Part shown: one piece after another, positions 20,573-41,036 of the stretch | How positions within the stretch are numbered: position 1 is the stretch's first letter | How the letters are laid out: the number at the start of each line of letters is the position of its first letter | Origin: Candidatus Woesearchaeota archaeon | GTDB taxonomy: Archaea; Nanobdellota; Nanobdellia; Woesearchaeales; ARS49 | Direction: 5' to 3' | NCBI GenBank assembly: GCA_016188265.1 | Contig: JACPID010000003.1 | Span: forward strand, 1 to 64,000 | DNA length: 64,000 bases | Position numbers and translations under genes: made by a program | Notes under the pieces: generated by a model | Told to the model about the DNA's origin: nothing | The model's database searches: none | The model's input: the letters and a program-made list of their open reading frames with translations, nothing else

Positions 20573-21981
20573 GCTTAAAAATAGGCTTAGAAATACATGC
20601 AAGTTTGTTAACAAAAACAAAACTATTTTGTTCTTGCCAAGCTTATGGAGCAAAAGAACCAAATACGCAAACTTGTCCAGTGTGCCTGGGGCATCCTGGA
20701 AGCAAGCCTGTATTAAATAAAAAAGCGCTTGATTATGCGCTTAAGCTATGTCTAGCACTCCATTGTGAAATATCTCAAGAAGCAATATTTTCAAGAAAAT
20801 CATATTTTTATCCAGATCTTGCAAAAAATTATCAAATCACGCAATATGAAATTCCCTTGGGAAAAAATGGAAATATACAAGTAAGTAAAAATAAAATAAA
20901 AATAAGAAGAGTACATTTAGAAGAAGATCCAGGAGCCTTAGTTCATGTTGGAGGTAAAAGCAAAGCAAGCATATCTCTTGTAGATTATAACAGGTCAGGA
21001 CTGCCTTTATGTGAAATAGTAACAGAGCCGGTAATAACAAGTGCTTCTGAAGCAAGAGAAGTTGTAAAACAATTAACATCAATTCTAGAATATCTTGAAA
21101 TATTTGACATAAAAATATGCGAATTAAAAGCAGATGTTAATTGCAGCATTGAACAAAGCGGGTATACGCGTGTTGAAATAAAAAACATCACAGGCTTTAA
21201 AGAAATAGAACAAGCTGTAATATATGAGATAAAAAGACAGGAGAATCTAGTGAAAAAAGGCGGAAGAATTATTCAGGAAACCAGAGGATGGGACTCAGAA
21301 AAAAAAGAAACATATACTTTACGTACAAAAGAAACAGAAGAAGACTACGGATACATAACTGACACTGATCTTGTGCCTCAAGAAATTACCAAAGAAACAA
21401 TTGAAACTTTAAGAAGAGAACTGCCTGAATTGCCGCAACAAAAAGCAGAAAAATATGCTAAAAAATACAGCATAGATAAAATTGATGCAGAAATAATTGC
21501 GCAAGACAAACATGTAGCAGAATTATTTGAAAAAATAATTAAAAAAATTGATCCAAAATTAACAGCAAAATGGTTTAGGCATGAACTTTTACGCGTAATA
21601 AACTTAACAGAAAAAACAATCCATGAACTAAACTTAAAAGAAGAGCACATTCTTGAAATATTGAGTTTAATAAAAGAAGAAACAATAACAGAAAAAACTG
21701 CAAAAGAAATTGTTGAAAATTTGGTTAAAAAACCATTCTCTCCTAAACAATACATAAAAGAAAAAGGCCTGGAAATGAAAAAAAATATTTATGAACTTGA
21801 AAATTTATGCAAAGAAGCAGTTAAAGAAAATCAAAATGCAGTAAAAGATTATTTAGCCGGAGAAGAAAAATCAATAAACTTTATAATCGGCAAAGTTATG
21901 GGTAAAACTAAAGGAACAGCAAAACCGCAAGAATTGAAGGAAATAATTAAAAATATAATCCATGATGAGAACACACAATAA
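20569..21981 (+). CDS. gatB: Asp/Glu-tRNA amidotransferase subunit B
   Basis: IGLEIH, RKSYFYPDL, HLEEDPG, DYNRSG, RVEIKN. Confidence 0.97.
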   Translation: MSLKIGLEIHASLLTKTKLFCSCQAYGAKEPNTQTCPVCLGHPGSKPVLNKKALDYALKLCLALHCEISQEAIFSRKSYFYPDLAKNYQITQYEIPLGKNGNIQVSKNKIKIRRVHLEEDPGALVHVGGKSKASISLVDYNRSGLPLCEIVTEPVITSASEAREVVKQLTSILEYLEIFDIKICELKADVNCSIEQSGYTRVEIKNITGFKEIEQAVIYEIKRQENLVKKGGRIIQETRGWDSEKKETYTLRTKETEEDYGYITDTDLVPQEITKETIETLRRELPELPQQKAEKYAKKYSIDKIDAEIIAQDKHVAELFEKIIKKIDPKLTAKWFRHELLRVINLTEKTIHELNLKEEHILEILSLIKEETITEKTAKEIVENLVKKPFSPKQYIKEKGLEMKKNIYELENLCKEAVKENQNAVKDYLAGEEKSINFIIGKVMGKTKGTAKPQELKEIIKNIIHDENTQ

Positions 21982-23725: not shown

Positions 23726-23736
23726 AAGCCAAAGAA

Positions 23737-23982
23737 TTAATCATAAACATCTTTGCGATGATCAAAACAGTTAATGATAATTTTGTCTTGTTCAATTCTG
23801 TAAATTATCCTAAATGGGGCAACTCTTACACTACGATGATTCTTCAAATCATATTTTAATGGCTTGCCTATTTCTGGACTTTCAGAAAGTTTTTTTAATT
23901 GTTTGATAATCTTTAGTCTTGTTGTTTTATCTTTAAGTTTCTTAAAGTCTTTTCTGAACTCATCAGAAAATACGATTTCCAT
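23737..23982 (-). CDS. RelE/ParE family toxin
   Basis: FRKDFKKL...PEIGKPL...RSVRVAPFRIIY...HRKDVY. Confidence 0.9.
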   Translation of the reverse strand: MEIVFSDEFRKDFKKLKDKTTRLKIIKQLKKLSESPEIGKPLKYDLKNHRSVRVAPFRIIYRIEQDKIIINCFDHRKDVYD

Positions 23983-23983
23983 T

Positions 23984-24274
23984 TTACGCCATCAATAGAT
24001 CATCAATTTCTTCGTCACTCATAGAAGTGTCTGCTTTGACAGCTTTCCCTCTACTTATTTGTTCTTCACTTCTTTCAATAGCTTCTATTAAGCGAAGGTC
24101 TCGTGCTAGAGTTTCTTTTCTAATCATTTTTAATAAAATATTTCCTCCCTCATTAAAGACAAGAAATTTTGTTGATGCCTTTATTCCTGCATCTTTCCTA
24201 ATTTCAGCAGTGATTACCACTTGTCCATTTTCCGATAATTTTGTTATTGAAACTTCCATTTTTTTCACATACAA
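23984..24274 (-). CDS. AbrB/MazE family antitoxin
   Basis: TKLSENGQVVITAEIRKDAGI; directly upstream of the RelE gene; start may be 24259. Confidence 0.85.
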   Translation of the reverse strand: MYVKKMEVSITKLSENGQVVITAEIRKDAGIKASTKFLVFNEGGNILLKMIRKETLARDLRLIEAIERSEEQISRGKAVKADTSMSDEEIDDLLMA

Positions 24275-24321
24275 TGTATTTTAATATTAAAACATCTTTT
24301 ATATTTAAACTTTTCTGTTTT

Positions 24322-24413
24322 TTAGTTGAGGACATAAGTAAAGCATATATTATTCAACCTCAACTAAGTTGAAAAAGACAAACTATTTTATGTGTTACTT
24401 TTGTCTTTTTCTA
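24322..24413 (-). repeat. Double-hairpin dispersed repeat, family B, copy 2
   Basis: Stems TTAGTTGAGG/CCTCAACTAA and GAAAAAGACAAA/TTTGTCTTTTTC; inverted homologue of 4809-4897. Confidence 0.85.
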
Positions 24414-24456
24414 TTTTTACTAAACACTTAAAAACACTGCACATTGAAGTACACCT

Positions 24457-25746
24457 ATGAAATACGTGTCTATCGCAGAAGCAATAGAAAAAGGCAAAGG
24501 AACAGTAGAATTAAGAGGATGGTGTTATAGAGAAAGAAAAAGCAATAAGTATGCATTTATTGTTTTAAGAGATAATACTGATATTATTCAATGCATTGTA
24601 GAAAAAGAAAATGTACTGCCAGAAGTATGGGCTCAAGTTGAAAACCTGCTAATAGAAAGCAGCCTTACAATAAAAGGGGAAATTGTTAAAGAACCAAGAG
24701 CGCCAACTGGATATGAATTAAAAGCCAAAGAATTAAAAATTATTCAATTTGCAGACAGATTTCCAATTACAAAGGACCAAAGCACTGAGTTTTTACTTGA
24801 TAAAAGACATTTATGGATAAGAAGCAGGGAATTAACAAATGTTTGGAAAATAAAAGCGCAATTACTTAAAGCATGCAGAGAATTTTTTGATAAAAAAAAA
24901 TATTATGAAGTCACACCGCCAATAATTACTGGAAGTTCTTGCGAAGGAGGATCTACACTTTTTGAATTAAAATATTTTGATGACAAAGCATATCTTTCAC
25001 AATCAGCTCAGCTTTATTTAGAAGCAATGATTTTCAGCCTTGAAAAAGTATGGGCCTTAACACCGAGTTTTCGCGCAGAGCCTAGCAAAACAACAAGACA
25101 TTTAACAGAATATTGGCATTTAGAAGCAGAAGCTGCATGGATGAATTTTGAAGATTTGCTTAAACTAGAAGAAGAATTAGTAAGCTACATTTGCCAATAT
25201 GTTGCAAAAAATTGTAAAAAAGAACTTGCAGTTTTAGGAAGAGATCCTAAAGATTTAGAAAAAATAAAACCTCCTTTTCCAAGAATAACATATGATGAAG
25301 CAATCAAAATACTAAAACAAGATGAAATTAGTATAGACTGGGGAAAAGATTTGCGCACAATCGAAGAAGATCAACTAATGAAGCATTACGACAAACCTCT
25401 TATAGTTACAAAATATCCTAAAAAAATCAAAGCATTTTACATGAAAGAAGATCCTGAAAACAAAGATGTTGTTTTATGCTGCGATGTAATTGCTCCAGAA
25501 GGATATGGAGAAATAATAGGCAGCAGTGAAAGAGAAACAGATCTTGAAAATCTAAAACAAAGACTTAAAGAACAAGGAGAAAAAATCGAAGATTATGAAT
25601 GGTATCTTGATTTAAGATGTTTTGGCAGTGTACCTCATTCTGGATTTGGATTAGGAGTTGAAAGAGTGCTTAGATGGATTTGCAAATTAGAAACAGTCAG
25701 AGACTGCATACCCTTTCCAAGAACAATTAAAAGAATGACTCCTTAA
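24457..25746 (+). CDS. asnS: Asparaginyl-tRNA synthetase
   Basis: EFLLDKRHLWIRS, YLSQSAQLYLE, FRAEPSKTTRHLTEYW, GYGEIIGSSERE, VPHSGFGLGVER. Confidence 0.95.
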   Translation: MKYVSIAEAIEKGKGTVELRGWCYRERKSNKYAFIVLRDNTDIIQCIVEKENVLPEVWAQVENLLIESSLTIKGEIVKEPRAPTGYELKAKELKIIQFADRFPITKDQSTEFLLDKRHLWIRSRELTNVWKIKAQLLKACREFFDKKKYYEVTPPIITGSSCEGGSTLFELKYFDDKAYLSQSAQLYLEAMIFSLEKVWALTPSFRAEPSKTTRHLTEYWHLEAEAAWMNFEDLLKLEEELVSYICQYVAKNCKKELAVLGRDPKDLEKIKPPFPRITYDEAIKILKQDEISIDWGKDLRTIEEDQLMKHYDKPLIVTKYPKKIKAFYMKEDPENKDVVLCCDVIAPEGYGEIIGSSERETDLENLKQRLKEQGEKIEDYEWYLDLRCFGSVPHSGFGLGVERVLRWICKLETVRDCIPFPRTIKRMTP

Positions 25747-26037
25747 TTAACTTAATAACATCTTAATTCTATCAAGAACTTCTTTTTTCTCAAAAGGTTT
25801 CTCAAGTAAAGGTATTAAATACATCAAAAGATTGTGTTTTTCTTCTGCTTTTACAAGCACAACATTATCAGAAGCAACTGCAGTCCTATAATCTTCAATA
25901 GCATTTGATAAATCAACAAGAATTACTTTTAAAGCAGTTATGCGTGATTTACCAATATCCTTATCATTTTGCACTGTACTTTTAAGCAATTGAACTTCTG
26001 CTTTTAATGTTTCTAAAACTGATTTTAATGCAGGCAT
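25747..26037 (-). CDS. Hypothetical protein
   Basis: 96-aa helical ORF with TATA-like sequence upstream. Confidence 0.6.
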   Translation of the reverse strand: MPALKSVLETLKAEVQLLKSTVQNDKDIGKSRITALKVILVDLSNAIEDYRTAVASDNVVLVKAEEKHNLLMYLIPLLEKPFEKKEVLDRIKMLLS

Positions 26038-26092
26038 GCAATAAGGTTAAACAAGCAAATTTAAATTGATTTAGCTTTTCCAATATTATAAT

Positions 26093-26317
26093 ATGCGAAT
26101 ATACAAAATATCTGGCTGGAAAGTATGGCTAATATTACTTATAGCAATGATAATTTTTATAGCATTATTTATTATTGCAATCCACATATTTATTTTTCTT
26201 CTACCACTAATTCTAGCAATTGTTCTCATGAGTTTGCTATGGAATTTATTCTCTAAAAAAAGAAAGTATAAAAGAAAAGAAAAAGATTTTATTGATGTTC
26301 AGTGTCAAGTGAAATGA
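26093..26317 (+). CDS. Small membrane protein
   Basis: Long hydrophobic hairpin, basic tail, ends FIDVQCQVK. Confidence 0.65.
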   Translation: MRIYKISGWKVWLILLIAMIIFIALFIIAIHIFIFLLPLILAIVLMSLLWNLFSKKRKYKRKEKDFIDVQCQVK

Positions 26318-27515
26318 GTGAATTAATTGACTTCACTGAATCGTCAAGGATTCTTTTTTCAAAATCAGCAATTTTTTCACCTTCTTCTTTTTCAACAGAT
26401 AAAACCTGTGCAAGTTTTTTAACTAATCCTATTTGTTTTTCAACAGATGTTAACTGGTGCTGTTTTGTATTTTCCTGAATAATCTTTTCTTCTAAAACAT
26501 CAACATTTTCTGAAGAAATCTTAATTTCTTCAAATTCTTTTGAGCTTAATTTAGAAGTATTTTTTAGCATAGCATAAGCGCCTTGCTGTTCAAGATATTC
26601 AAAAATTTTCTGCATTAAAATATCAGAAGGCTTTCCTGAACACAAAACTCCTTTAAACCTTAATAAAACAATTGCATTCTCTACATTTTTTATTTGAGAA
26701 AAACAATAATCCTCAACTTGGCCAGGCGTTTTGCTATTACAATCAATTGTTAAAGAAACAACCTGGTGAAGCGGCAATGAAACATGTTTTACTCTAAAAT
26801 CTTCAACAATACAAAACGAGCCGTGTTTTAATTTTTCCAACTCTGAGAAATTATTTGGAAATGTAGGCCCTGGAAAAACAATATTTTGATAACCATCTAA
26901 ATCTTGACGATCAACAACATGAACATGGCCCCCTGCATAATAATTAAAACCTTTTGGTAAAAAAGAAACTTCCATTGCATCCATTTCCTCAAGATCTTTG
27001 GGCTTAAGTTCATTAATTGCAGAATGAAATAAAAAAATTTTATTTCCACGCTCATTTTCCAAAGATTCTCTGAGAAGATCCTCATAATAGTACTTATCTA
27101 AACCTCCTTTTTTTCCAATAATGCCTGTTATTTTAACTCCAGTTTTTGAGTCAACAGTAAAATGAAGCTTTAATTTGCCATCAACCACACTTCCTTTAGC
27201 TACATTAATGCCCAATCCAGCACGATCAATAATATCAAGCATTGTTTTTCCACTGGGGCTAAAATCATGGCTTCCTGCAATAAAATAAACAGGAATACTT
27301 GCATCATGGATTCTTTTCAATTGTTCAACAGCAAGTTTAATACTATCAATATCAGGAATTGCTGTATTAAAAAGATCGCCACATAAAAGAACAAAATCAA
27401 CATTTTCCTGCAAAATAATATCAACTGCTTTTACAAATGATTTTATGTTTAAATCACGCAATTTAGGTTCTTTCCAACCACCAATGTGAATATCAGACAT
27501 ATGAGCAAACTTCAT
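26289..27515 (-). CDS. mre11: DNA double-strand break repair nuclease Mre11
   Basis: SDIHIG, GDLF, AGSHD, FHS and AGGHVH metallophosphoesterase motifs. Confidence 0.92.
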   Translation of the reverse strand: MKFAHMSDIHIGGWKEPKLRDLNIKSFVKAVDIILQENVDFVLLCGDLFNTAIPDIDSIKLAVEQLKRIHDASIPVYFIAGSHDFSPSGKTMLDIIDRAGLGINVAKGSVVDGKLKLHFTVDSKTGVKITGIIGKKGGLDKYYYEDLLRESLENERGNKIFLFHSAINELKPKDLEEMDAMEVSFLPKGFNYYAGGHVHVVDRQDLDGYQNIVFPGPTFPNNFSELEKLKHGSFCIVEDFRVKHVSLPLHQVVSLTIDCNSKTPGQVEDYCFSQIKNVENAIVLLRFKGVLCSGKPSDILMQKIFEYLEQQGAYAMLKNTSKLSSKEFEEIKISSENVDVLEEKIIQENTKQHQLTSVEKQIGLVKKLAQVLSVEKEEGEKIADFEKRILDDSVKSINSLISLDTEHQ

Positions 27516-27550
27516 TATATCTGGTAAAAAGCAGTAATTTATAAGAATTA

Positions 27551-28000
27551 TTATATTAATTTAGCTAAGTCTAAATTTTTTAATCCAGAAATATCATTGC
27601 GTATTAATTCTGCCAATGTTCTTTTGATATCATGAAGTTTTTCTATACAATGTAAAGTAGTTATGCTACTTAAAGATTCAGCGATGCTACTTAAAGATTG
27701 TTCTGATTGTTCTGCTGAAGATTCGAATTTGTGCGTTAAAAAAAAATCGCTTAAATCAGTTATGTATTGATCTTCAGATGTGAACTTAAGATCTCTAACA
27801 TATTTCTGAAAATCAGAAATAATCCAGATGATACTAGCATGAATTCCCCTCATAGTATCATATTCATAATATACACTTTTATGCGCAGGATGGTCAAGAA
27901 AATCATGTTGTTTTTCTTCGTAGGTTCTTGCATAATCAACAATTTTTTTCAGTACTGAAAGAACTATATCAGGATATTCTTTTAAACACGATTCAGCCAT
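27551..28000 (-). CDS. Hypothetical protein
   Basis: 149-aa ORF between the GGDEF gene and mre11. Confidence 0.6.
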   Translation of the reverse strand: MAESCLKEYPDIVLSVLKKIVDYARTYEEKQHDFLDHPAHKSVYYEYDTMRGIHASIIWIISDFQKYVRDLKFTSEDQYITDLSDFFLTHKFESSAEQSEQSLSSIAESLSSITTLHCIEKLHDIKRTLAELIRNDISGLKNLDLAKLI

Positions 28001-28098
28001 AAAAAACTAGAATAATTTATGATTTAAAACTATTATGATTATTAGATTCACAGCCTTAGTCTTCACAGTACTTCTGCAGAGATTGATTTATTAGGCAG

Positions 28099-28174
28099 TA
28101 ATTAACTTTGCCACCTGCGAAATAAAATACAACTTAAACTACTCCTCTATCTATTCAAGTGGCAAAGTTAATTA
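28099..28174. mobile_element. MITE-like element at the 3' end of the GGDEF gene
   Basis: TAATTA-ACTTTGCCAC ... GTGGCAAAGT-TAATTA: a 16-bp inverted repeat, or 10-bp TIRs with a 6-bp target duplication. Confidence 0.55.
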
Positions 28175-29664
28175 GTAAGGTATTCTTGAATAATTTGTAT
28201 ATGATTTTTACCTCTACGTTTAGCCTCATACAAAGCTGCATCAGCTATTTCAAATAATTTTTTTGACAATTGGTCTGCATTTTCAATAGTTATTAATTTG
28301 CCTTTTCCATTAAAAAAAGCAAGACCTCCTGAAATAGTGAATTTATCATCAATGCCAATTCGCTTAAAAAAAATAGGACTTTCTTTTTCAATAAGCAAAC
28401 GTAAACGATTTACTACGCCAACAATCTCATGAAAGTCAGCAGGAGAAAAAATAACGCAAAACTCTTCCCCACCATAACGAAAAACAAGATCTTTAGCTTT
28501 AAGGGCTTTTCTTGAAGTATTTCCCAAAAACCGAAGCACATTATCCCCAACTGCGTGGCCGTAAGTATCATTTATTCTTTTAAAATTATCACCATCAAAA
28601 ACAAGCAGGCATAACTGAGAACTATCTTTGCTTGCTCTCTGAATTAGTTCTGGAATTTTCTTCCAAAAATATTTTTTTGTAAAACAATTAGTCAACTGAT
28701 CAATCAATGCTTCAAGCGCTGCAGCAGCAAGTTCTTTTTTTTCACGCAAAGAAAGCCATAAAGAACGAAGAGAATATCTTGATAAGGTTTTTTTACAAGG
28801 ATCATCAAGCATATCGCTATGCTCCATAAGCAAAGACTGATATTCTAAAACTTCTTCAGGTTTTGTAAAAGTTCTCAAGTCTTCTTTTACATCTGATAAT
28901 GTTATAACAGTTTTTTTTGAAAATGAAAAAAACATCATCTTTCTAGTTATTAAATCATGAATTTGTGTTTTTACAGTTCTCTTTTTTTCAAAAATATTTT
29001 GCAAAGGTGCAAGACATTCATTTTTTTCTTTGTATAAAGATAAAATGATTGCATAAATAATTTCTTCAAGCTCTTCTTCTTTTGCTCTAATCTGATCTTT
29101 ATTAATTTCACTTAAGTGTTCATACCATTGAAATACTTCATCTTCTTTTTGTAAAAAAAGTTTTTGATCATTAATATAAATTTCAAATTTGTCAAGAATA
29201 TGTAAAATCTGGTCTGCTAAAGAATCTTCTTCATGTTCTTTTTCAAGCGCTTGCGAGATTTTTTTAGCGCTTAATCCTATTTTTTTAACAGCCATAGAAT
29301 TTAAAGCTTCATTCTCCTTTGCTTCTAAAAAATCACGCCACTCTTTTGATAAAATGCTCTCCTCTTTTGCAGTAAGAGTTTTTTCTTCAAGTAAAAGCGC
29401 ATATTCTTTTTTTTCATAATCTAAAATTGATTGAAACTTTGAAAAAATCTGCCTCCGGATCTTTTCAATTTCGGATTTTATATGAAATATATTTGATAAA
29501 TCGCTCGCATCTCTAAGTTGCCTGCTCCACCAAACGAGATTTGCAATAAGTTTTTTATGCTCCTTAATAGTATTTAAACGATCAAAAAAACTTTTGAAAA
29601 CTTCCTGTTCTTGTTCACCTATTTTTTTAAATGCAACATACAATCTCTCAATATCATTGTTCAT
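28168..29664 (-). CDS. Diguanylate cyclase (coiled-coil N-terminus plus GGDEF domain)
   Basis: [43 protein letters not shown]; 4-bp overlap with herA stop. Confidence 0.93.
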
Positions 29665-31178
29665 AATAGCTTCATTCCAGAAAAGGTAGACTGTTCTTTT
29701 ATACTTTTCTGTTGTTTTGCTACATCATCAAAAAAAGGAATTGAAATTGGAATTGCAAATCTTGCAAATGTTGATGTAAGAATAGCCTCCCCTTTATCTA
29801 AAGAAGATATTGCATGTTCATCTTTACTTAAATCCTGAGCTGCGCTTTCAATTATGGCCTGTCTTTCTTGTTTTAATTCGGTGCCTAAAATAATTTTTGT
29901 ATTAAGATTTGCAAGAATATCGCGAGGAATTAAAGATGGTAATTGAGTAATTGCAATTAAGCCTATGTTAAACTTTCTGCCTTCTCTAGCGATTGTTGAA
30001 AATACATTATTTCCACGCTCAAGCGCATCTTTTGACAATACTCTTGGAGCTTCTTCGAGAACAATGGAAATTACAGGCAAAGCTGACAATGTTGCCTGAT
30101 CTGCTTTTTTAGCACTAGCTAATAATTCATGAGCTATAATACTTCCTAGAAAAACTTCAATTCTTTCACTAGCTAAAGAAGTATCAATAACAACTATTGT
30201 ACTTTCGTAAAGAGCTCTAATAACATCACTAACAAAAGAGTGGCCAGAAGTTGTACTAAAAATTCCTTTGCTAATAATAAAGCCATCTTGAATAGATAAA
30301 TTAAGAAGGCTTAGCAATTGCCTTTTAATAACTGCAAGCGTTGATTCTCCAAAAGAAACAGAAATAGGCTTATTTAAAATAATTGCTTCAATCCAGGAAT
30401 CAGCATATTCACGATAATATGATTGAAGCGCTTGATATTGAGGATCACTCCACTCAATAACTCCTTGAAAATGTTTTGGCTTGATTAAAGAAATATTAAT
30501 TCGCAATGTACGCGAACCTGGCGGAGGATTTGCAAAAGTGTAATATATTAGTTTGCTTGAAAATGCATGATCTTTTAAGCCGATTGAAGATCTTCCATAA
30601 TATTCATCATGAGGATCTAAAATAAGAATTCCTGCATAATTTTGAGCTAATAAATTCCACATCAAGTGCTTCATTAAAACACTTTTTCCACGGCCAGTAG
30701 TTCCACTAATTAATACATGATGACTGAGAACATTTCTGCCATCAAGAATTATTTCAACAGGTATTGTTTTTTTTCCACTTCTTAAAAATCCAAGAAAAAA
30801 AGGGTTTATAGACGGCTGAAGAAAAGAAACATCTTGTTTTGTTATTGATCTTACTGGTGAAAAAATTTTTGGCAATGTTTTGCAAGCTGCTGCTTTATTT
30901 CCTTTAATAAAAAGAATATTTTTTACATTAGCTAACTGGTACGAACGAAGTTTTTCATCCATTATTTGCAAATCTGTATCTTCTTCTAATTTTAATCCTG
31001 AAACAAGTTCAAGTTGCTGTTGCGATAATTGAGAACCATATGCAAGATCAAATACTTGCAAAAGAATCTTATTTTCTTTATCTTCAGTTATTAATAATTC
31101 ACCTAATTCAAAATATTCACTATTTTTTTGGCGAACACAAATATTTCCAAATTGACCTGAAATAACCAACCCTCTCAT
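29661..31178 (-). CDS. herA: HerA-like ATPase/helicase (DUF87)
   Basis: GTTGRGKS Walker [25 protein letters not shown]. Confidence 0.9.
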
Positions 31179-31248
31179 TTATAGAAATAAGTTAACAAAA
31201 GATTTATATAACTATCTTCCACAATATATCACAAAAGCAGGTGATAAT

Positions 31249-31827
31249 ATGTTAAGATTACTTTGGAGTCCTGGCAGCCTTATTGAAGATTTAAGAGGAA
31301 AACCAAGTTTTGGACTTGCATTTTTCACTTTAGTAATAAGCACACTCATCATATGCGGAAGTATTGTTTTATTTAGTTTTGTATCTCAGGATTCAAAAAT
31401 TCTGCTTAAAACAACAGGCACAATATTTGTAGCTGTTATTGTTATAGTCTTTTACTTGGCAGCATTATTAACTGCTATTATGAAAACACTTTCTGGAAAT
31501 GGTTCTTACACTGCAGGCCTTTCAAGCCTTTCATTACCAATGATGCCATTATCTGTTGCATTACTATTAATTGTTTTAGCAAACATTGTTAATATTACAA
31601 GCCAAACAATAATTGCAATATACACTATGTGGATAATCACTGGCCTATCAACTCCTTTTTTATTAGTGTTAAGCATATCTACAATATTTCGCGCACTAAA
31701 AGAATTATTTGAAACAAATATGATCACAGCATTATTAGGCTTTTTTCTTTTAAAAATAACAGTCATTGCACTATTGCTAGCAAGCACAACTCAATACTGG
31801 CTGCCACTATTAATTATAGCAGAGTAA
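31249..31827 (+). CDS. Yip1-like membrane protein
   Basis: N-terminal LLWSP motif and five TM helices. Confidence 0.65.
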   Translation: MLRLLWSPGSLIEDLRGKPSFGLAFFTLVISTLIICGSIVLFSFVSQDSKILLKTTGTIFVAVIVIVFYLAALLTAIMKTLSGNGSYTAGLSSLSLPMMPLSVALLLIVLANIVNITSQTIIAIYTMWIITGLSTPFLLVLSISTIFRALKELFETNMITALLGFFLLKITVIALLLASTTQYWLPLLIIAE

Positions 31828-31863
31828 TAATTATTATAAACTAGTTTAATAAACATAATAACA

Positions 31864-32067
31864 ATGGAAGACAATTTTCTAAAAAAAAAAGAAGTGCAAA
31901 AAGCTCTTAAAGAAGCAAAGAAACTTGAAAAACATATTATTCCTCAAGAAGAGATTGTAAAAACTTATGAAGAAGGCCTTGAACAATTAAATAAGTTAAA
32001 AGAATTTTTAAAACCAGCATGGTTTGTTAAAGATACTGACAGCAAGAAAAAAAAAGATAGCACCTAA
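31864..32067 (+). CDS. Small hypothetical protein
   Basis: 67-aa charged ORF with TATA upstream. Confidence 0.55.
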   Translation: MEDNFLKKKEVQKALKEAKKLEKHIIPQEEIVKTYEEGLEQLNKLKEFLKPAWFVKDTDSKKKKDST

Positions 32068-32212
32068 TTAAACACTATGCACCACTCAACAGTTATTACC
32101 GTCGAGTCTTAGTAATAATACCGACGAAAAGTTTATAAAATAGAAGTCCTAACATTATTAGATTCGATGCGTTCTCGTCGAAATAATAAAAAAAAAATCG
32201 GAGGAGTGACTA

Positions 32213-32440
32213 ATGGCACAAAAAGTAACAAAAGTAGGTGTAAAAAAAGAAAAAGGATATCTCTACTTTGTAGATAAAAAAGGAAATGTAGCTCGTGCAA
32301 AAATGGCACGCGGTAAAAAAAGAGGCGGCAAAACAGAAGTTGTTGCAAAAGCAGGTGTAAAAAAAGAAAAAGGATATCTCTACTTTGTAGATAAACAAGG
32401 AGATGTTTCAAAAGCTAAAATGGCACGCGGCGGAAGATAA
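32213..32440 (+). CDS. CC1-like small basic chromatin protein (two internal repeats)
   Basis: Duplicated GVKKEKGYLYFVDKxGxVxxAKMARG; strong SD GGAGG. Confidence 0.8.
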   Translation: MAQKVTKVGVKKEKGYLYFVDKKGNVARAKMARGKKRGGKTEVVAKAGVKKEKGYLYFVDKQGDVSKAKMARGGR

Positions 32441-32596
32441 ACCCGCCTTTGCTTATTAAATAAGGAGGTTATGCTTCATGGGAATTGCCATCTTTGGCGG
32501 ATAATACAGTCACAAATAAATCTGATAGTACTATATATTTTTAGAAAACTATTTATACTTGGCATTGCCTGTTCAAGTTATAAGAGGGGTTTTTAG

Positions 32597-33235
32597 ATGG
32601 TAATGAAGTTTTTTAAAAGAATCTTTGGAAGATTATGGAAAGACCTATTTAAAGGCAAAAAAGAACTGAAATTAGGACTGTACGGCCCGCCAAATTCTGG
32701 TAAAACCACTTTAGCAAATAGAATATGCTTAGATTGGCTTGGCGAAGAAATGGGCAGTGTAAGTAGCATTGCACATGAAACACGAGAAATACAAATAAAA
32801 GAACAAATTTCTATTCGTTCAAAAGATGGAAAAGAATTATTTTTTAATCTAGTAGACACTCCGGGAATTGCAACAAGAATTGATTATGAAGATTTTTTAA
32901 AAGCAGGATTAACTGAAAATAAAGCAAAAAAAAGAGCAAAAGAAGCAACAAAAGGAATAATTGATGCAATTAAATGGCTTGATGACATGGATGCTGTTGT
33001 TGTTGTTTTAGATGCAACTCAAGACCCGTACTCGCAAGTTAACATAACAATAATAGGAAATCTAGCGGCAAGAAACATACCTGTTATTATAGCTGCAAAT
33101 AAAGTTGATTTAAGAAAGTCAAATATGAAAAAAATAGAATCTGCATTCCCACAATATGAAGTTGTTGGAATTTCAGCAAAATATGGAAAGCATGTTGAAA
33201 AATTATATGAAACCTTCTTTAATTTAGTAAAATAA
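32597..33235 (+). CDS. oapA: Era-like small GTPase (OapA/ArvA family)
   Basis: GPPNSGKTTLANRI, HETR, DTPG, ANKVD; first gene of a three-gene cluster. Confidence 0.88.
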   Translation: MVMKFFKRIFGRLWKDLFKGKKELKLGLYGPPNSGKTTLANRICLDWLGEEMGSVSSIAHETREIQIKEQISIRSKDGKELFFNLVDTPGIATRIDYEDFLKAGLTENKAKKRAKEATKGIIDAIKWLDDMDAVVVVLDATQDPYSQVNITIIGNLAARNIPVIIAANKVDLRKSNMKKIESAFPQYEVVGISAKYGKHVEKLYETFFNLVK

Positions 33236-33237
33236 AA

Positions 33238-33621
33238 ATGGTAACTATACAATTTGTTCCATATGGAGAAATTGAAGATGTTAGCAGTGTTGGAAGGATT
33301 AGAAAATTATTAAATATTGCAAAACAAAATAAAATTGTATTATTACAAGGAAGACTTAAAAAAGAAGAAGAAGCTGAACTTATAAAAGCAACAATGGAAG
33401 AAATAAACAAAGAATTCAAAGGCATTGAATTAGCTGTTATTAATCCTGCAGAACAAGCATCAACTAAATTTCAAAAATTTCGAAACCAAGTATTTTCAAG
33501 TATTTTAGGAGATAGGCAAGGACTGACAATAATAGGCCCTGCAAATGTTGTAAAATCAATAAAAAAAGACCCTCATAAAATTGAATTGTTAACTGCAGAA
33601 AACAGAAAAAGAAGGAAATAA
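33238..33621 (+). CDS. oapB: DUF2073 protein (OapB-like)
   Basis: IRKLL...GRL..EEEAELIKATM...FKGIE...GLTIIGPAN; synteny with oapA. Confidence 0.85.
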   Translation: MVTIQFVPYGEIEDVSSVGRIRKLLNIAKQNKIVLLQGRLKKEEEAELIKATMEEINKEFKGIELAVINPAEQASTKFQKFRNQVFSSILGDRQGLTIIGPANVVKSIKKDPHKIELLTAENRKRRK

Positions 33622-33623
33622 CA

Positions 33624-34001
33624 ATGCCCCACCAATGCGTAAGGTGCAATGCCATTTATGAAGATGGAAGCAAAGAAATTCTAAAAGGCTGTTCCTGCGG
33701 AGCTCGACTATTTTTTTTCATTAAAAAAGAAAGGCTAGAACAGCTTAAAAAAGATTTAGATGTTAATCTTTCAAATGAAGATAAAAAACAAATAGAAGAA
33801 GATGTGTATGACCTTATAGGAACAAAAGATCCTGATGCGCCTGTAATTTTAGACTTTGAAACAATACGCATACTTAAACCAGGAAAATATGAAGTAGATC
33901 TTGTTCAGTTATTTAAAAAAGAACCTCTTGTTTTTAAATTAGAAGAAGGAAAATACATCATTGATTTGCCTGAAACATTTGAAAGACTTAAAAACAAATA
34001 G
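33624..34001 (+). CDS. oapC: Zn-ribbon protein DUF2072 (OapC-like)
   Basis: MPHQCVRC...ILKGCSCG...GKYEVDL. Confidence 0.88.
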   Translation: MPHQCVRCNAIYEDGSKEILKGCSCGARLFFFIKKERLEQLKKDLDVNLSNEDKKQIEEDVYDLIGTKDPDAPVILDFETIRILKPGKYEVDLVQLFKKEPLVFKLEEGKYIIDLPETFERLKNK

Positions 34002-34010
34002 TTTTAACAA

Positions 34011-34099
34011 ATAGAAAACGAAATAAATAATAGGACAATAGTTTCGTTTTCTAAATAGTACGCGCCATAAGAGTGTCCTACAAATTATGGCGCGTACTA
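34011..34099 (+). repeat. Double-hairpin dispersed repeat, family A, copy 3
   Basis: Fills the gap between convergent oapC and phoU-like genes; 1-nt deletion and G-to-A change vs copy 1. Confidence 0.95.
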
Positions 34100-34102
34100 A
34101 AA

Positions 34103-35008
34103 TCATTCATCATCAATAATAATTCTGGCAATATTATTCAATAAAGTGATTACTTGTTTAAAATGCTCATGTGTTTCATTAGGCAATTGATCAACTTCCT
34201 GCATAATTATTGTTCTTTGTTTAGCAAAATTATCTGCAAAATGTTTGTCTTTAGTATAAAATGATTTCATAAGTGCTTCATAATGTTCTGAAATATTTTT
34301 TAGAAATAATTGAACTGAATTTTGTTTTTCTTTTATAAGAGGATAAATATTTTTACAACAATCTGCAATATTTTCCAAATTAACAGCCAAATACCATAAA
34401 GATAATATTCTTGCAGGAAGGATTTTAAATTGTTCTGCCAATGTATCATCTTTTAAAGATCCTTTAAGCATACGAAATACTAAAAAGTATAATCTATTAA
34501 CATCTTGATCACGAAATGACAAGCTTTCCTGAGCTGTATCTTTTGATATATCTTGAAACATTGAACGTAAAATCATATCAATGCGCCTGATAGTTTTTTC
34601 AATAGAAACATCATCTATATTAAGGAGATCTCTTGCTGTAAATGAATTAGAAGATTGTTCAATAAGCTCTAGTGCAACAAAATCCCTTAAAAGTTCTCTT
34701 AATTCCTGTTGATTTTTTTTAACCTGCTCCCCAACTATATTTATTGTGTGATAATTATTTATGTACGCAGAAGTTATTTCTCTTTGAAGTGTTTCAAATG
34801 CTTTTGATTTTTCAAATGAGAGAGTAATTTCTCTTGCAACTGGTTTTGATCTTTTAATATGCGGGGTAATAATTATTTCTGTGGATGATTTCTCATATAA
34901 GTAAACAGCATCTCCTTTTTTGAGGTTATTTTTATCCAGCCACTCTTTTGGCAAAGATAAAGTATGACTTGTTTGTCCTGCTTTTACTAATTTTCTAACA
35001 TAAACCAT
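34103..35008 (-). CDS. AbrB-PhoU phosphate uptake regulator family protein
   Basis: RKLVKAGQTSHTLSLPKEW AbrB domain; DQDVNRLYF and LENIAD PhoU repeats. Confidence 0.88.
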   Translation of the reverse strand: MVYVRKLVKAGQTSHTLSLPKEWLDKNNLKKGDAVYLYEKSSTEIIITPHIKRSKPVAREITLSFEKSKAFETLQREITSAYINNYHTINIVGEQVKKNQQELRELLRDFVALELIEQSSNSFTARDLLNIDDVSIEKTIRRIDMILRSMFQDISKDTAQESLSFRDQDVNRLYFLVFRMLKGSLKDDTLAEQFKILPARILSLWYLAVNLENIADCCKNIYPLIKEKQNSVQLFLKNISEHYEALMKSFYTKDKHFADNFAKQRTIIMQEVDQLPNETHEHFKQVITLLNNIARIIIDDE

Positions 35009-35104
35009 AACAACCTCTTTACAACCTAAAGTATATACTTACCGTACTTGCCGTATTATATGTGCATTATTCATATATAAAAGCTTTTACATCCTATAAA
35101 ATAC

Positions 35105-35380
35105 AATGGTTAAGAACTAAAAAGGACGGTGTTAGTCGAAGAGGACGCAAATCCTAACATTGAGGAGGTCAAGGCTGAGCGTCAACAAAAACCTAAATGC
35201 CTTGCACCATATCCTTTTCAATATTATTTTCCTAATCAATAGGTGATTTGTTAGGCGAACATAAGTCACAACTCACAACAACTTACTGGGCGGGATTATA
35301 ACATCCCACCCATTGCACTCATCCCTCAAACCCCTCTAATGGCGCGAACATGGATTTCTTAATCTCGCGCCAATTTTTTT
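35105..35380 (+). ncRNA. Putative structured non-coding RNA, family not recognised
   Basis: GC-elevated with no ORF; TATA upstream; multiple stems; ends in TGGCGCGA/TCGCGCCA hairpin plus T7. Confidence 0.55.
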
Positions 35381-35448
35381 AATTTTTTATGCTAAAAACT
35401 ATATACAAATATAGAAATTATTATAAAACTAGCAGTATAACAAAACAT

Positions 35449-36558
35449 ATGCAATTAAAAAATAAAAACTTAGAAGAAAAAACAATCTTGTTTCTTAAAA
35501 ACCTTGAAAAAAAAGACAAAATTGCAATAATGCACCATTCAGACCCAGATGGTGTTTGTTCTGGAGTTCTTATTTCAAAAATTATTGAACGTTTAAGAGA
35601 TAAACCAATTGATTTACGTTATAATCAACATAGCAATGAACATGCTATACAACCACAAACTGTTAAATTACTAAAAAAATACAGTATTAACAAACTAATA
35701 ACAACAGACATATGTTCTGAAGAAAATAAAAAAAAATTAGAAGAAGTAGAAGATTTTGCTAAAATACTGATTATAGATCATCACAGATTTAAACATGATG
35801 CAAACTCAGAAAAAACCATTATGTTTAAGCCCCAACTTGTTTATGAAGGTATTGAACCTTCAAAGTATTGTTCAGCAAAACTAGTATATGATTTAGGAGA
35901 AAAATGCAGTATTTTTATGAAGGATCTTGATTGGATAGCATCGATAGGCATTGTTGCTGACATGGCTTTTCAAGAATGGGAAGAATTTCTTAAAAACACT
36001 GCTGAAAAATATGGAATTGAAAAAAATAATTGGTGGGAAGGAAAATTTGGAAAAGCTTCAAACCTAATTAATGATACTGAATGCTTTAATGATGAGCTTG
36101 CTAAAGAAAGTTTTTATTTTTTATCAAATGCGAGAAATATCCGAGATTTTTTATCATCTCCTTTAATAAAATATCAGAATATTATTCAAGAAGAAGTTGA
36201 TAATTGTCTCTCCTCTGCTAATGAAAAAGCAGAACATTATTCAGAATTAGAGCTGGTATATTACGAGATTAAACCTAAATATAAAGTAAAATCTTCAATA
36301 AGCACATTGATAAGCATGGAAAAGCCAAATACAACATTTATTATTGTTGACTTGTCAGAAGAGTATGCTACTGTAAGCGGAAGAAGATTAGATGGAAAAA
36401 TTGCAATGAATGAATTATTTGAATATGCAACAAAAGACATAACAGAAGCGCATGGGGGAGGACATGTTAATTCAGGAGGAGCTACTGTTCCAAAAAAAAG
36501 TTATGCTCTATTTAAACAAAGAATTTTTGAATATCTCAAAAACTACCTACTTCAGTAG
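35449..36558 (+). CDS. DHH/DHHA1 family phosphoesterase
   Basis: HHSDPDG, TTD, IIDHH, GIVAD, SGR and GGGH motifs; TATA ~28 nt before ATG 35449. Confidence 0.9.
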   Translation: MQLKNKNLEEKTILFLKNLEKKDKIAIMHHSDPDGVCSGVLISKIIERLRDKPIDLRYNQHSNEHAIQPQTVKLLKKYSINKLITTDICSEENKKKLEEVEDFAKILIIDHHRFKHDANSEKTIMFKPQLVYEGIEPSKYCSAKLVYDLGEKCSIFMKDLDWIASIGIVADMAFQEWEEFLKNTAEKYGIEKNNWWEGKFGKASNLINDTECFNDELAKESFYFLSNARNIRDFLSSPLIKYQNIIQEEVDNCLSSANEKAEHYSELELVYYEIKPKYKVKSSISTLISMEKPNTTFIIVDLSEEYATVSGRRLDGKIAMNELFEYATKDITEAHGGGHVNSGGATVPKKSYALFKQRIFEYLKNYLLQ

Positions 36559-36569
36559 GTAGTTTTTGA
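36536..36569. repeat. Perfect 15-bp hairpin across the DHH stop codon (family D-like)
   Basis: TCAAAAACTACCTAC-TTCA-GTAGGTAGTTTTTGA. Confidence 0.8.
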
Positions 36570-37558
36570 TCATACAAATAATGACATATACAAGCTTACT
36601 ACTCGACTTTGTTGAAACGCTTTTCACAGCACAATCTACAGAAATTTTACTAGATAAAGCAACAGAATTTCTTACAAATACTTTCAAAATATCAAACACA
36701 TGCATTTATCTTAAAGAAAATAAAAAAAGATTTTATTCAAATATACAAATTGAAAAAGAATACTCTTTAATTGAACAAAAATTATTAGAACTATTATGCT
36801 CTCTTAAAACAATAACATCAATTGCTTCAATTAAAAAAGATGTACTTACAGAAAATATCAAGATAGAAAACATTCCTAATTCAGTTCTGGCAATACCTTT
36901 AATAGATCAAAGAGAGTTCTTTGGTGCAATTTTTTTATACTCTGAAAAAGAACTTAAAGATTTTCAAGATATTTCTGATCAATTACAAAAAAGATTCTTA
37001 AATGCATACAAGTACATAAATAAGTATGATGAACTTAAAAAAACATCAGTAACAGATCCTTTAACAGGACTTTTCAATAGAATTTACATGATAGATTTCT
37101 TAAACCAAACACTCAAACATGCTGAAATTAGCAAAAAACCAACATCTATTATAATTTTAGACCTGGATAATTTTAAAGGATATAATGATACAAAAGGGCA
37201 CTTAGAAGGGGATAAACTTCTCAAAACAGTATCTGAAGGTATTTGCAACAAATTTCGTTTTCAAGATGTTGCTTGCAGATATGGCGGTGAAGAATTTGTT
37301 GTAATTCTCCCAAATACTGAAAGTAAAATCGCACTTCAGCGTGCAGAAGAAGTGAGAAGATTCATTGAAGCAGATTGCAATACAACCATAAGTGTAGGAG
37401 TAATGACTTGCCTAAACTCCTCGCTAAGTTCTCAAGAAATGTTAAAAAATGCAGATGATGCCCTATATAAAGCAAAAAGAACTGGAAAAAATAAAGTAAT
37501 TCAGTATATTTCTGTAGATAAAAGCCTCGGGGTTATTGATACAACACATGCAATATGA
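36566..37558 (+). CDS. GAF-GGDEF diguanylate cyclase
   Basis: GAF-like SVLAIPLIDQREFFGAIFL; DPLTGLFN, DLDNFK, NDTKGHLEGD, RFQD I-site, RYGGEEF; probable ATG 36581. Confidence 0.93.
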   Translation: MIIQIMTYTSLLLDFVETLFTAQSTEILLDKATEFLTNTFKISNTCIYLKENKKRFYSNIQIEKEYSLIEQKLLELLCSLKTITSIASIKKDVLTENIKIENIPNSVLAIPLIDQREFFGAIFLYSEKELKDFQDISDQLQKRFLNAYKYINKYDELKKTSVTDPLTGLFNRIYMIDFLNQTLKHAEISKKPTSIIILDLDNFKGYNDTKGHLEGDKLLKTVSEGICNKFRFQDVACRYGGEEFVVILPNTESKIALQRAEEVRRFIEADCNTTISVGVMTCLNSSLSSQEMLKNADDALYKAKRTGKNKVIQYISVDKSLGVIDTTHAI

Positions 37559-39842: not shown

Positions 39843-41036
39843 TCATTTTCTTGTAATTATCTCAACCACATCCCTATGTTTTAACATGTGATCTTTTCCA
39901 ACACTCATCTTAGTTTTAACATTAATAGCTCGAATAAAATTTTTTCCAAGATCAGTATGAAGATGGTATGCAAAATCAATAGCAGTTGAATTTTTAGGCA
40001 ATAAAAAACAGTCTGGTAAAACATTGCCATCTTTATCTGCAAGCTTGTTTACTCCGCCAGGAAAAATTGCTATTGCACCTAAAAGATCAAATACAGCAGT
40101 ATTTAGTATTTGTTGAATGCCAGTGCTTCCAAAAACATCTAAAATTTTTTTCTGTATAAACTCGAGAGCTAATCTTTGTTTAGGAGATAAGCCACCAATA
40201 ATTTCAAATTTACTATCTCCTGGAAGGTATTTAATAAAATTCTTTTTAGCTGCTTCTCTTAAAGCCAATTCTGCATCTGCAGCGCAAGGAATAATAATAT
40301 GATTAGGAAATGCTTTTTTCAAACGCTCAATATTTTCTTTAGCTGAATGAACATCAATCTTATTAGCAGCAATAACCATAGGCTTTGTTAATAAGCGCAG
40401 TTGAACTGCTAATTTGTGCAGATCTTCTTCAGCCCAAGATATTAATTGTTCTTTAGAAAAAGAAAGATTAGACAATGCTTTTTTAATATGTTCTTCTTTG
40501 ATATTCAATCCTGATAATTGTTTTGCTAAAGCAAGAACAACATCACTTTGTTCTTGTTGAACTTGGCGGGCAAACTTATCCCAACCTTTTTTAATAATAC
40601 TTAAAACCCACATATCCAACTCAAACTCTAAAAATTTTACATCAAAAACAGGATCATACTTTCCTGGTTCAACAGGTTCTCCTTTTTCATTTGAGCTTCC
40701 GCTTGCATCAACAACATGAATAAAAACATCTGCCTGCCTTAAATCATCCAAAAATCTATTACCCATACCTTTACCTTCATGAGCCCCTGGAACAAGCCCT
40801 GCAACATCAATAAGCTCAAAAGGAACAAAACGCTGATTATTAATACAATAACCATACCTAGGATTACATTGCGTATTAAATTCTTTATCAACACAATCAA
40901 TCCTCACATGAGCAAAACCTTTATTAGGATCAATAGTTGCAAAAGGATAATTTGCAATCAACACATCAGCAAGTGTAGAAGCTTTAAAGAATGTTGATTT
41001 GCCAGTATTAGCCTTACCTACAAGACCTATGATCAT
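39843..41036 (-). CDS. ychF: Obg-family ATPase/GTPase YchF (archaeal)
   Basis: GKANTGKST, NYPFATIDPN, DVAGLVPGAHEGKGMGNRFL, C-terminal TGS domain. Confidence 0.93.
   Translation of the reverse strand: MIIGLVGKANTGKSTFFKASTLADVLIANYPFATIDPNKGFAHVRIDCVDKEFNTQCNPRYGYCINNQRFVPFELIDVAGLVPGAHEGKGMGNRFLDDLRQADVFIHVVDASGSSNEKGEPVEPGKYDPVFDVKFLEFELDMWVLSIIKKGWDKFARQVQQEQSDVVLALAKQLSGLNIKEEHIKKALSNLSFSKEQLISWAEEDLHKLAVQLRLLTKPMVIAANKIDVHSAKENIERLKKAFPNHIIIPCAADAELALREAAKKNFIKYLPGDSKFEIIGGLSPKQRLALEFIQKKILDVFGSTGIQQILNTAVFDLLGAIAIFPGGVNKLADKDGNVLPDCFLLPKNSTAIDFAYHLHTDLGKNFIRAINVKTKMSVGKDHMLKHRDVVEIITRK

Follow-up and report, generated by a model that had tools for sequence, protein, structure and literature searches.

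A 64,000-nucleotide stretch of DNA from a Candidatus Woesearchaeota archaeon (positions 1 to 64,000 of contig JACPID010000003.1; hereafter the window) was found to contain two genes, here called GGDEF1 and GGDEF2, that carry the GGDEF domain of diguanylate cyclases, the enzymes that make the messenger cyclic di-GMP (c-di-GMP). We propose, with a probability of about 0.72, that GGDEF1 and GGDEF2 code for genuine diguanylate cyclases, catalytically competent and native to this archaeon, which have been inherited within its lineage. The window is contig 15 of a DPANN (Woesearchaeota-type) metagenome-assembled genome (MAG) of 923,817 bp in 25 contigs, estimated to be 98.2% complete and 1.2% contaminated, and its DNA is matched by groundwater metagenome runs.

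Both open reading frames (ORFs) are intact, as an earlier note on this DNA had read them, and the motifs listed there were recovered in full from the translations and by alignment to the solved cyclases PleD and DosC. GGDEF1 matched the Pfam GGDEF family (PF00990) at 2.7e-31 (108.9 bits; cut-off, 23.8) and NCBIfam TIGR00254 at 6e-38 (130.2 bits; cut-off, 37.4), while GGDEF2 matched the same two families at 1.9e-39 (135.4 bits) and 1.5e-47 (161.5 bits). The best solved cyclase for GGDEF1 by sequence was DosC (4.2e-23), and translation together with alignment to DosC located the motifs DQLTNC, DGDNFK, NDTYGH, the guanine-reading GD, and RYGGEEF. In GGDEF2, alignment to PleD located DPLTGL, DLDNFK, NDTKGH (within NDTKGHLEGD), the guanine-reading GD, and RYGGEEF; its C-terminal motif reads ADDALYKAKRTGKN, and an RxxD inhibitory site (I-site), RFQD, lies five residues upstream of GGEEF. 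The public call of GGDEF2 is 325 residues long (P0001), and the ATG at 36581 is therefore taken as its start. The roles of the aligned PleD residues, namely the Mg-binding Asp and the guanine-reading Asn/Asp, are those given in the PleD literature. For the Hypr synthases of cyclic GMP-AMP (cGAMP), the rule applied was that Ser replaces the guanine-reading Asp, as given in the available text of Sidorov et al. (2026, Mol Microbiol, PMC13725321). Asp was found at this specificity position in both proteins, bearing out the earlier note's reading of GD rather than the Hypr GS.

The structure model of GGDEF2, built from a 31-row alignment, had a predicted local distance difference test score (pLDDT) of 91.8 and comprised an alpha/beta domain, a long helix (residues 126-157), and a GGDEF fold. 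Residues 1-121 were modelled as helices with a 5-6-stranded sheet, a GAF-like alpha/beta fold, and Foldseek aligned the model from end to end with the phytochrome-linked cyclase 5llw (E value, 5.9e-21). For both GGDEF1 and GGDEF2, the models reached a Foldseek probability of 1.00 to many solved cyclases, and the isolated GGDEF domains gave target template modelling scores (TM-scores) of up to 0.89-0.90. Pfam GAF domains (PF01590/PF13185) gave no match to GGDEF2 itself at E<=0.1; among 31 orthologues, GAF matched 12 weakly (best E value, 7.4e-5) and GAF_2 matched 9, and the longer orthologues carry an additional PocR domain. A GAF-like N terminus is thus supported by the predicted fold and by the orthologues rather than by a Pfam match of the protein itself. 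The 30 orthologues that were aligned, at 34-51% identity, keep all catalytic columns and share a C-terminal tail with the consensus DKSLGVIDV; both GGEEF and GD were present in 31/31.

GGDEF1 has a different input end. Its model (10-row alignment) had a pLDDT of 81.9, lower in residues 85-150, and was all-helical up to the stalk helix, and its best Foldseek matches were WspR, GCN4-WspR, and the coiled-coil-GGDEF protein DgcB (E values, 6e-14 to 5e-12). A homodimer prediction for GGDEF1 scored 0.19 (mark, 0.42), a value that weighs neither for nor against a dimer. No full-length relative was found in a search of a word-indexed protein database. Residues 1-310, when compared with the relatives of this archaeon, matched proteins in seven genomes by BLASTP (E values, 3e-43 to 4e-9) and in two others by phmmer (6e-10 and 1e-4). 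The ten GGDEF1-type proteins align end to end, with conserved catalytic columns and a conserved stretch, KITxxDIKxDLRTLTxPEEVLEY, ahead of the stalk; GG[DE]EF was present in 7/10, GD in 9/10, and RxxD in 7/10. When residues 1-300 were used as the query for an exhaustive HMMER search of 1.84 billion representative sequences, 26 proteins were found at E<=1e-3 and 13 at <=1e-10. Nearly all of these are 470-550 residues long and were matched at their N termini, 23 of the 25 proteins other than GGDEF1 carry a C-terminal GGDEF domain, and those with a name are all from Woesearchaeota. None of the ten family members matched a Pfam family in this region. A weak language-model resemblance to DGCcoil (PF20975; 0.87) serves as a lead only. 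Collectively, these comparisons and the model indicate that the N terminus of GGDEF1 is an undescribed, lineage-restricted helical domain of about 300 residues and a putative sensor. The two different inputs claimed in the earlier note therefore hold as two types of predicted sensor, and its GAF assignment stands by fold and orthologues; its coiled coil is better described as an all-helical domain followed by a stalk helix.

GGDEF matches were found in 36/36 other genomes of the same GTDB family, in 16 of the 24 other families of the order, and in 66 of the 251 genomes of the class that were searched (>=80% complete). The premise that GGDEF genes are rare in archaea does not hold for this class. 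Loci were taken from 35 genomes, each locus at most about 20 kb long and reaching some 9 kb to either side of a GGDEF match; 31 of these genomes belong to the family (all those with full-length matches, unpublished ones excepted) and 4 to other families. A full-length GGDEF2-type protein (coverage >=0.85) was present in 33/35. Near the GGDEF2-type gene, a YGR210-type GTPase gene lay within three ORFs in 24 genomes, a DHH gene in 16, and either of the two in 28; several of the remaining loci lie at contig ends. The order OapC, PhoU-domain gene, DHH gene, GGDEF2, and GTPase gene recurs in many relatives, and the named proteins among the closest full-length relatives of GGDEF2 are without exception labelled 'Candidatus Woesearchaeota', 'Nanoarchaeota', or 'Nanoarchaeia'. 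GGDEF2 is the core cyclase of the lineage, kept in one chromosomal slot. Genomes of the family often carry two to three separate full-length GGDEF genes. A third paralogue group, 333-366 residues long, lies beside an ATP-dependent DNA ligase gene in four relatives; the window has the ligase gene (6441-8210) but not this third paralogue.

The surroundings of GGDEF1 are more variable. The order HerA, GGDEF1, small ORF, Mre11 was common to the window and one relative (G017) only, and in four other genomes the HerA and Mre11-like genes are directly adjacent, with nothing between them. A constant neighbour of GGDEF1-type genes was considered and rejected, as the neighbours vary between genomes and include phosphoglucomutase (two genomes), a class I tRNA synthetase, TruD, PIN/VapB, and a kinase-like protein. 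The phosphoglucomutase/phosphomannomutase gene lies directly upstream of the GGDEF1-type gene in both of its genomes (G027, L137:10917-12227; G014, L118:11100-12680), and in G027 the two genes overlap by 4 nt. A conserved small partner gene downstream was likewise rejected: likeness was confined to the ORFs of G019 and G022 (E value, 3e-13), a hidden Markov model (HMM) of this pair found nothing else, and the 149-residue ORF of the window matches no ORF beside the GGDEF1-type genes of other genomes.

To place the two proteins among other cyclases, GGDEF domains were extracted, with an HMM built from the GGDEF2 orthologue alignment, from the archaeal loci, from 80 further loci (77 of them bacterial by title), and from database matches. 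Domain matches of fewer than 130 profile positions were dropped (467 to 436 rows), the best match per protein was kept (378), and identical sequences were merged (364); three of the ten GGDEF1-type proteins are absent from the trees owing to the 130-position filter. In the FastTree phylogeny, GGDEF2 fell in a clade of 101 leaves (support, 97) that holds none of the 84 bacterial-labelled leaves and is made up of 29 leaves from family genomes, 70 full-length-family database proteins, and two further proteins (P0082 and P0083). The clade does not include the three slot orthologues that come from other families of the order. A quick IQ-TREE run (LG+G4) on 102 rows, with at most five bacterial rows per phylum label (45 of the 84) and 28 hand-picked database proteins, placed the 18 slot orthologues on one branch with a support of 99 in the Shimodaira-Hasegawa-like approximate likelihood ratio test. 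When the seven GGDEF1-type domains were constrained to group together, the likelihood was better than that of the free quick tree and the grouping was not rejected (P value of the approximately unbiased test, 0.934); the same was true when the 29 family domains of the three paralogue groups were constrained together (P value, 0.835). A single origin of the family's GGDEF domains is thus not rejected by these tests, which are compatible with it and do not prove it, and the proposal made here would also be compatible with a transfer that took place long ago, into the lineage's ancestor. Because GGDEF is family-wide, the GGDEF2 slot is conserved, the GGDEF2 clade lacks bacterial members, and the N-terminal domain of GGDEF1 is lineage restricted, we take both cyclase genes to be native and conserved across the lineage rather than products of contamination or recent transfer. 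The word domesticated, used in the earlier note, appears fair in this light, as archaeal orthologues exist for both proteins and GGDEF2 lies in an archaeal clade.

We next turned to the domains that would degrade or bind the product. A census of partner domains covered 41 genomes of the family, this one included. EAL and MshEN were each found in 0/41. HD_5 gave weak, candidate matches near the cut-off (25-42 bits) in 7/41. PilZ was found in 2/41, which belong to a single genus; no other canonical c-di-GMP receptor domain was found among the 41 genomes. This PilZ is a stand-alone protein of 137 residues (L160:1435-1848, minus strand, in G001; L159 in G029) with the motifs RRFER and DLSEGG, which we take to fit the c-di-GMP-binding motifs RxxxR and D/NxSxxG, and its gene has a GDE_C glucosidase-like gene on one side and an ArsR-type regulator gene on the other. 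The intact motifs of this PilZ suggest that c-di-GMP is read inside the cells of at least one genus of the family. A search for class I c-di-GMP riboswitches gave no match in control genomes either and is therefore uninformative. The source genome also has a diadenylate cyclase, the enzyme for cyclic di-AMP (c-di-AMP).

Several observations weigh against the assignment of both proteins as working cyclases of an inherited archaeal system. The I-site position of GGDEF1 reads KAKD, a KxxD in place of RxxD, and the RxxD I-site is present in only 18 of the 31 GGDEF2 orthologues. In the domain-only trees, GGDEF1-type domains were scattered with weak support and were not resolved from bacterial sequences, and the bacterial sample in these trees was small and picked by similarity. 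The family tallies include three unpublished genomes, without which the GGDEF count is 33/33. The source genome, 98% complete, gave no match to EAL or HD_5 (HD-GYP), nor to PilZ, MshEN, ComFB, DUF520/YajQ, or the class II riboswitch. Since no known degrader or receptor was matched, a complete c-di-GMP pathway of a known kind is not visible here, and the claim of c-di-GMP signalling as a system, made in the earlier note, finds no counterpart among the known phosphodiesterase and receptor domains searched for in this genome. The available text of Sidorov et al. further reports that none of the first seven MAG proteins was consistent across all three assays used there (riboswitch, biofilm, and motility) and that a Woesearchaeota PocR-GAF-GGDEF protein, MBT3408960.1, altered biofilm independently of catalysis (PMC13725321). 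According to the available text of two papers, c-di-GMP has not been detected in archaeal cells (PMC13725321; PMC10249747).

These points bear on the alternatives to different degrees. A 25-contig MAG from groundwater metagenomes could in principle hold bacterial contamination or a chimeric join, and the 19-copy repeat at 34002-34102, which lies between the two loci and has very high k-mer depth in metagenome runs, ends many short-read contigs; among the contigs listed, reads therefore do not bridge the GGDEF1 and GGDEF2 loci. In three runs, Logan contigs of 7.9 kb span 26000-32265 with 0-3 differences and place GGDEF1 between the HerA and Mre11-like genes, together with the 149-residue ORF; a fourth run covers the same interval in pieces. 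The four runs share one study, and the assembly itself may derive from three of them, which makes them weak as independent support. None of the runs listed as matching was an RNA run, and in the records listed for three runs there is little cover to the right of 34100, from which no conclusion is drawn. The junction across the repeat is nevertheless supported because the gene order of the slot recurs in many relatives, and GGDEF is found in every other genome of the family. Both genes also overlap neighbours of archaeal context by ATGA, at 29661-29664 (HerA stop and GGDEF1 start) and 37555-37558 (GGDEF2 stop and next gene start), as the earlier note had described. The GC content of the bins with both cyclase genes is 0.285-0.303, within the window's range of 0.261-0.350, and the closest full-length relatives with a name are all Woesearchaeota or Nanoarchaeota. 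The archaeal neighbours and shared composition asserted in that note were likewise found: the window encodes diphthine synthase, GatD/GatE, ATP-dependent DNA ligase, CDC48, and RNase P component 3 by NCBIfam, and HerA, Mre11-like, and OapB/OapC proteins by profile matches. We regard contamination or a chimera as extremely improbable. A recent acquisition from bacteria, with no archaeal history, accords with the overwhelmingly bacterial distribution of GGDEF, with the free trees, where the GGDEF1 catalytic domain sits, weakly supported, amid bacterial and unlabelled sequences, and with the best GGDEF1 matches outside its family, which are bacterial GGDEF-EAL proteins that cover the GGDEF domain only. 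It is very unlikely given the slot and clade of GGDEF2, the presence of the GGDEF1 N-terminal domain in at least nine other family genomes and in only 26 proteins among the representatives, and a single clade for all family GGDEF domains that was not rejected. Neither a chimeric assembly nor nesting among recent bacterial donors without archaeal orthologues, two of the outcomes named in the earlier note as refuting its reading, was found.

A more serious alternative holds that the proteins are native without being sources of a c-di-GMP messenger, either because they make another nucleotide (cGAMP, c-di-AMP, or linear pppGpG) or because they act as GTP sensors or scaffolds. The lack of a canonical degrader or receptor in the genome would be expected in that case, the genome already has its diadenylate cyclase for c-di-AMP, and several archaeal GGDEF proteins gave catalysis-independent phenotypes in the published assays, as far as the available text reports (PMC13725321). 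The specificity residue is nonetheless Asp and not the Hypr Ser in both proteins and in 31/31 and 9/10 relatives, the catalytic residues are under a conservation that a mere scaffold does not need, and one genus of the family has a motif-intact PilZ; we therefore consider this alternative unlikely. An action of the c-di-GMP on a host or partner, rather than inside the archaeon, which the earlier note had raised, draws only indirect support from the general view of DPANN archaea as dependent on other cells and, again, from a genome in which no receptor was found. Both proteins are instead predicted to be cytoplasmic sensors, the I-site of GGDEF2 is typical of intracellular homeostasis, and in the limited set of neighbourhoods examined no export or injection gene was linked to either locus, which leaves such a role highly improbable.

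The analysis thus shows the integrity of the two genes, the conservation of their motifs, their predicted fold, and their native and conserved status, whereas enzyme activity, dimerization, sensed signals, and product use are inferred. By the established GGDEF mechanism, a dimer with one GTP-Mg2+ per GGDEF domain, each cyclase would act as a homodimer in which two GGDEF half-sites, each with GTP and Mg2+, meet to form c-di-GMP, and the N-terminal domains and linker helices would control this meeting. GGDEF2 would be a GAF-like sensor joined by a long helix to its GGDEF domain and would probably be product inhibited via its RxxD I-site, while in GGDEF1 the lineage-restricted helical domain would be joined by the stalk helix to a second GGDEF domain. 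We also considered a wider proposal, which we hold to be unlikely, that the lineage as a whole has a c-di-GMP system with novel readers and degraders, with the DHH/DHHA1 protein as a possible phosphodiesterase, and in which the messenger may be linked to replication, repair, or the cell cycle instead of the bacterial motile-sessile switch. Such a tie is suggested by the position of the core cyclase next to DHH and Oap genes and of its paralogues next to HerA/Mre11 genes in the window and a DNA ligase gene in relatives.

Two neighbours of GGDEF2 were considered as functional partners. The best family of the DHH/DHHA1 protein is archaeal RecJ, at 70.8 bits and far below the cut-off of 360. As a dedicated c-di-GMP phosphodiesterase it was rejected, because it is adjacent in only 16/33, the region is syntenic anyway, the RecJ likeness is so far below the cut-off, and the genome has three DHH genes; speculatively, it is a candidate nuclease or dinucleotide phosphodiesterase. 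The 758-residue membrane protein had no Pfam or NCBIfam match and showed a language-model likeness (0.97-0.98) to YfhO/PTPS_related membrane proteins, which we take to be GT-C-type glycosyltransferases. Its sole relative, found in 1 of 40 related genomes, has 23% identity and another genomic place. As a conserved output it was rejected as a lineage-specific insertion between GGDEF2 and the GTPase gene; being nearly unique to this genome, it is best read as a local insertion outside the conserved system.

Table 1. Positions of the two cyclase genes, their domains, and surrounding features in the window
Feature	Position	Strand	Remarks
GGDEF1, 498 aa	28168..29664	-	intact active site
GGDEF1 all-helical N-terminal domain	about aa 1-285, nt 28810-29664	-	without annotation
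GGDEF1 stalk helix	aa 288-320	-	structure model
GGDEF1 GGDEF domain	aa 319-488, nt 28201-28710	-	Pfam
GGDEF2, 330 aa from TTG at 36566, or 325 aa from ATG at 36581	36566..37558	+	
GGDEF2 GAF-like domain	aa 1-125 (numbered from ATG 36581)	+	structure model
GGDEF2 linker helix	aa 126-157 (numbered from ATG 36581)	+	structure model
GGDEF2 GGDEF domain	aa 157-305 (from ATG 36581), nt 37049-37495	+	Pfam
GGDEF2 C-terminal tail DKSLGVID	after GGDEF domain	+	family-specific, conserved
HerA-like ATPase (DUF87)	29661..31178	-	Pfam/NCBIfam; stop overlaps GGDEF1 start by ATGA
Mre11-like phosphoesterase	26289..27515	-	directly after HerA in several relatives
149-aa ORF downstream of GGDEF1	27551..28000	-	without family match
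OapA-like GTPase	32597-33235	+	left side of conserved GGDEF2 slot
OapB	33238-33621	+	left side of conserved GGDEF2 slot
OapC	33624-34001	+	left side of conserved GGDEF2 slot
AbrB/PhoU-domain protein	34103-35008	-	left side of conserved GGDEF2 slot
DHH/DHHA1 protein, 389 aa	35389..36558	+	same strand; ends 7 nt before GGDEF2 ORF
Polytopic membrane protein, 758 aa	37555..39831	+	start overlaps GGDEF2 stop by ATGA
YchF-related/YGR210-like GTPase	39843..41036	-	conserved right flank of GGDEF2 slot in relatives
Double-hairpin intergenic repeat	34002..34102	.	19 matches in genome; outside cyclase genes

Further features of the window were recorded beside these genes. The intergenic repeat forms a bipartite double hairpin (DNA fold, -26.4 kcal/mol; z, -9.0) that also occurs at 289-382, 3060-3153, and 49137-49230, and 11 of its 19 genome matches are near full length at 95-100% identity; an Rfam scan of the window gave no family at threshold. 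A Leu/Phe-rich low-complexity ORF (32133-32411, minus strand) lies between the Yip1-like and OapA-like genes, and, in all four matching runs, contigs with loose ends at positions 32139 and 32615 point to a repeat or a variable stretch there. The window encodes GatA/GatB, a bacterial-type aspartyl-tRNA synthetase, and an asparaginyl-tRNA synthetase in addition to the archaeal GatD/GatE (19178-25746 and 54153-57276), so that the archaeon appears to have both routes to amidated aminoacyl-tRNAs. The CDC48-family ATPase (57319-61005, minus strand) is unusually long at 1228 residues; its best NCBIfam stretch covers residues 750-1211, which points to a large N-terminal extension or extra AAA modules. 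The sole tRNA call in the window, made by ARAGORN at 44866-44953 (plus strand), is an 88-nt tRNA-Ile with the anticodon AAT at position 37, an unusual length and anticodon that may reflect an intron or a miscall.

Archaeal GGDEF proteins have been described before. According to the available text of Sidorov et al., archaeal isolates encode them, and so do MAGs, with 20 proteins that come 'mainly' from DPANN and 'class II'; some were active in Salmonella and E. coli assays. The riboswitch assay gave evidence of activity for three of the seven MAG proteins tested first, and two others showed robust activity (PMC13725321). The same text calls archaeal GGDEF sporadic, states that turnover genes are not multi-copy per chromosome, and leaves the co-occurrence of EAL/HD-GYP, the receptors, and the phylogeny open. 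The available text of a 2023 review describes cyclases as almost exclusively bacterial (PMC10249747), and that of a 2023 groundwater study reports more diguanylate cyclase genes in sediment-attached ultra-small MAGs, with archaea not separated (PMC9938205). Because active archaeal GGDEF proteins, DPANN included, appear in the available text of PMC13725321, the two genes of the window are a well-supported further example of archaeal GGDEF cyclases and not a first, as the earlier note had presumed.

The MAG proteins of Sidorov et al. resemble those of the window in their archaeal flanking genes, in their GAF-GGDEF and PocR-GAF-GGDEF types, in the lack of the Hypr Ser, and in the activity of some, as described in the available text (PMC13725321). 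From its supplement, the Woesearchaeota protein MBT3408960.1 shares its PocR-GAF-GGDEF layout with longer GGDEF2 orthologues, and MBI4145595.1 resembles the GGDEF1-family N terminus by eye only and is not among the 20 GGDEF1-family clusters that were looked up. The six GGDEF2-family accessions that were searched for are absent from the main text of the paper. The picture given there differs from the present one, in which the whole family has GGDEF, often as two to three full-length genes per genome; synteny, lineage-wide conservation, and a census of DPANN receptors and degraders lie outside the analysis in the available text (PMC13725321). Among the literature titles and abstracts listed by the searches, none was on the lineage-wide conservation or synteny of Woesearchaeota/DPANN diguanylate cyclases.

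The use of c-di-GMP by archaea bears on the age of the messenger, and we know of no archaeal c-di-GMP receptor or degrader. The locus adds a cyclase that is universal in the searched genomes of one DPANN family, with a fixed slot and paralogues, and from which the usual partner domains are nearly wholly missing; with a universal cyclase and without its usual partners, these very small genomes (about 0.9 Mb) are a compact setting in which to look for new c-di-GMP effectors. The locus further supplies two concrete proteins for biochemistry, of which GGDEF1 has a putative sensor domain that is undescribed.

Among solved cyclases, Dcsbis of Pseudomonas aeruginosa (PA2771; PDB 4zmu) shares the GAF-GGDEF layout and the same catalytic motifs with GGDEF2, whose model aligned to it over 342 columns (Foldseek E value, 2.3e-19). 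The two differ in that identity is 23-24%, the GAF-like domain of GGDEF2 is too diverged for Pfam, and GGDEF2 has an extra conserved C-terminal tail and an archaeal host. In WspR (3bre and 3i5c), Caulobacter DgcB (6ttr), and SiaD (7e6g), a long helix runs into the GGDEF domain as in the GGDEF1 model, which gave target TM-scores of 0.75-0.85 to 3i5c and 6ttr. In contrast to these stalk or coiled-coil cyclases, the helix of GGDEF1 is preceded by a predicted helical domain of about 285 residues without a Pfam family. The best sequence match of the GGDEF2 catalytic domain is PleD of Caulobacter vibrioides (PDB 1w25 and 2v0n; E value, 8e-30), and the alignment pairs the Mg-binding Asp, the guanine-reading Asn/Asp, RYGGEEF, and the RxxD I-site of the two proteins. 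Receiver domains and phosphorylation drive PleD; for GGDEF2 the driver would be its GAF-like domain.

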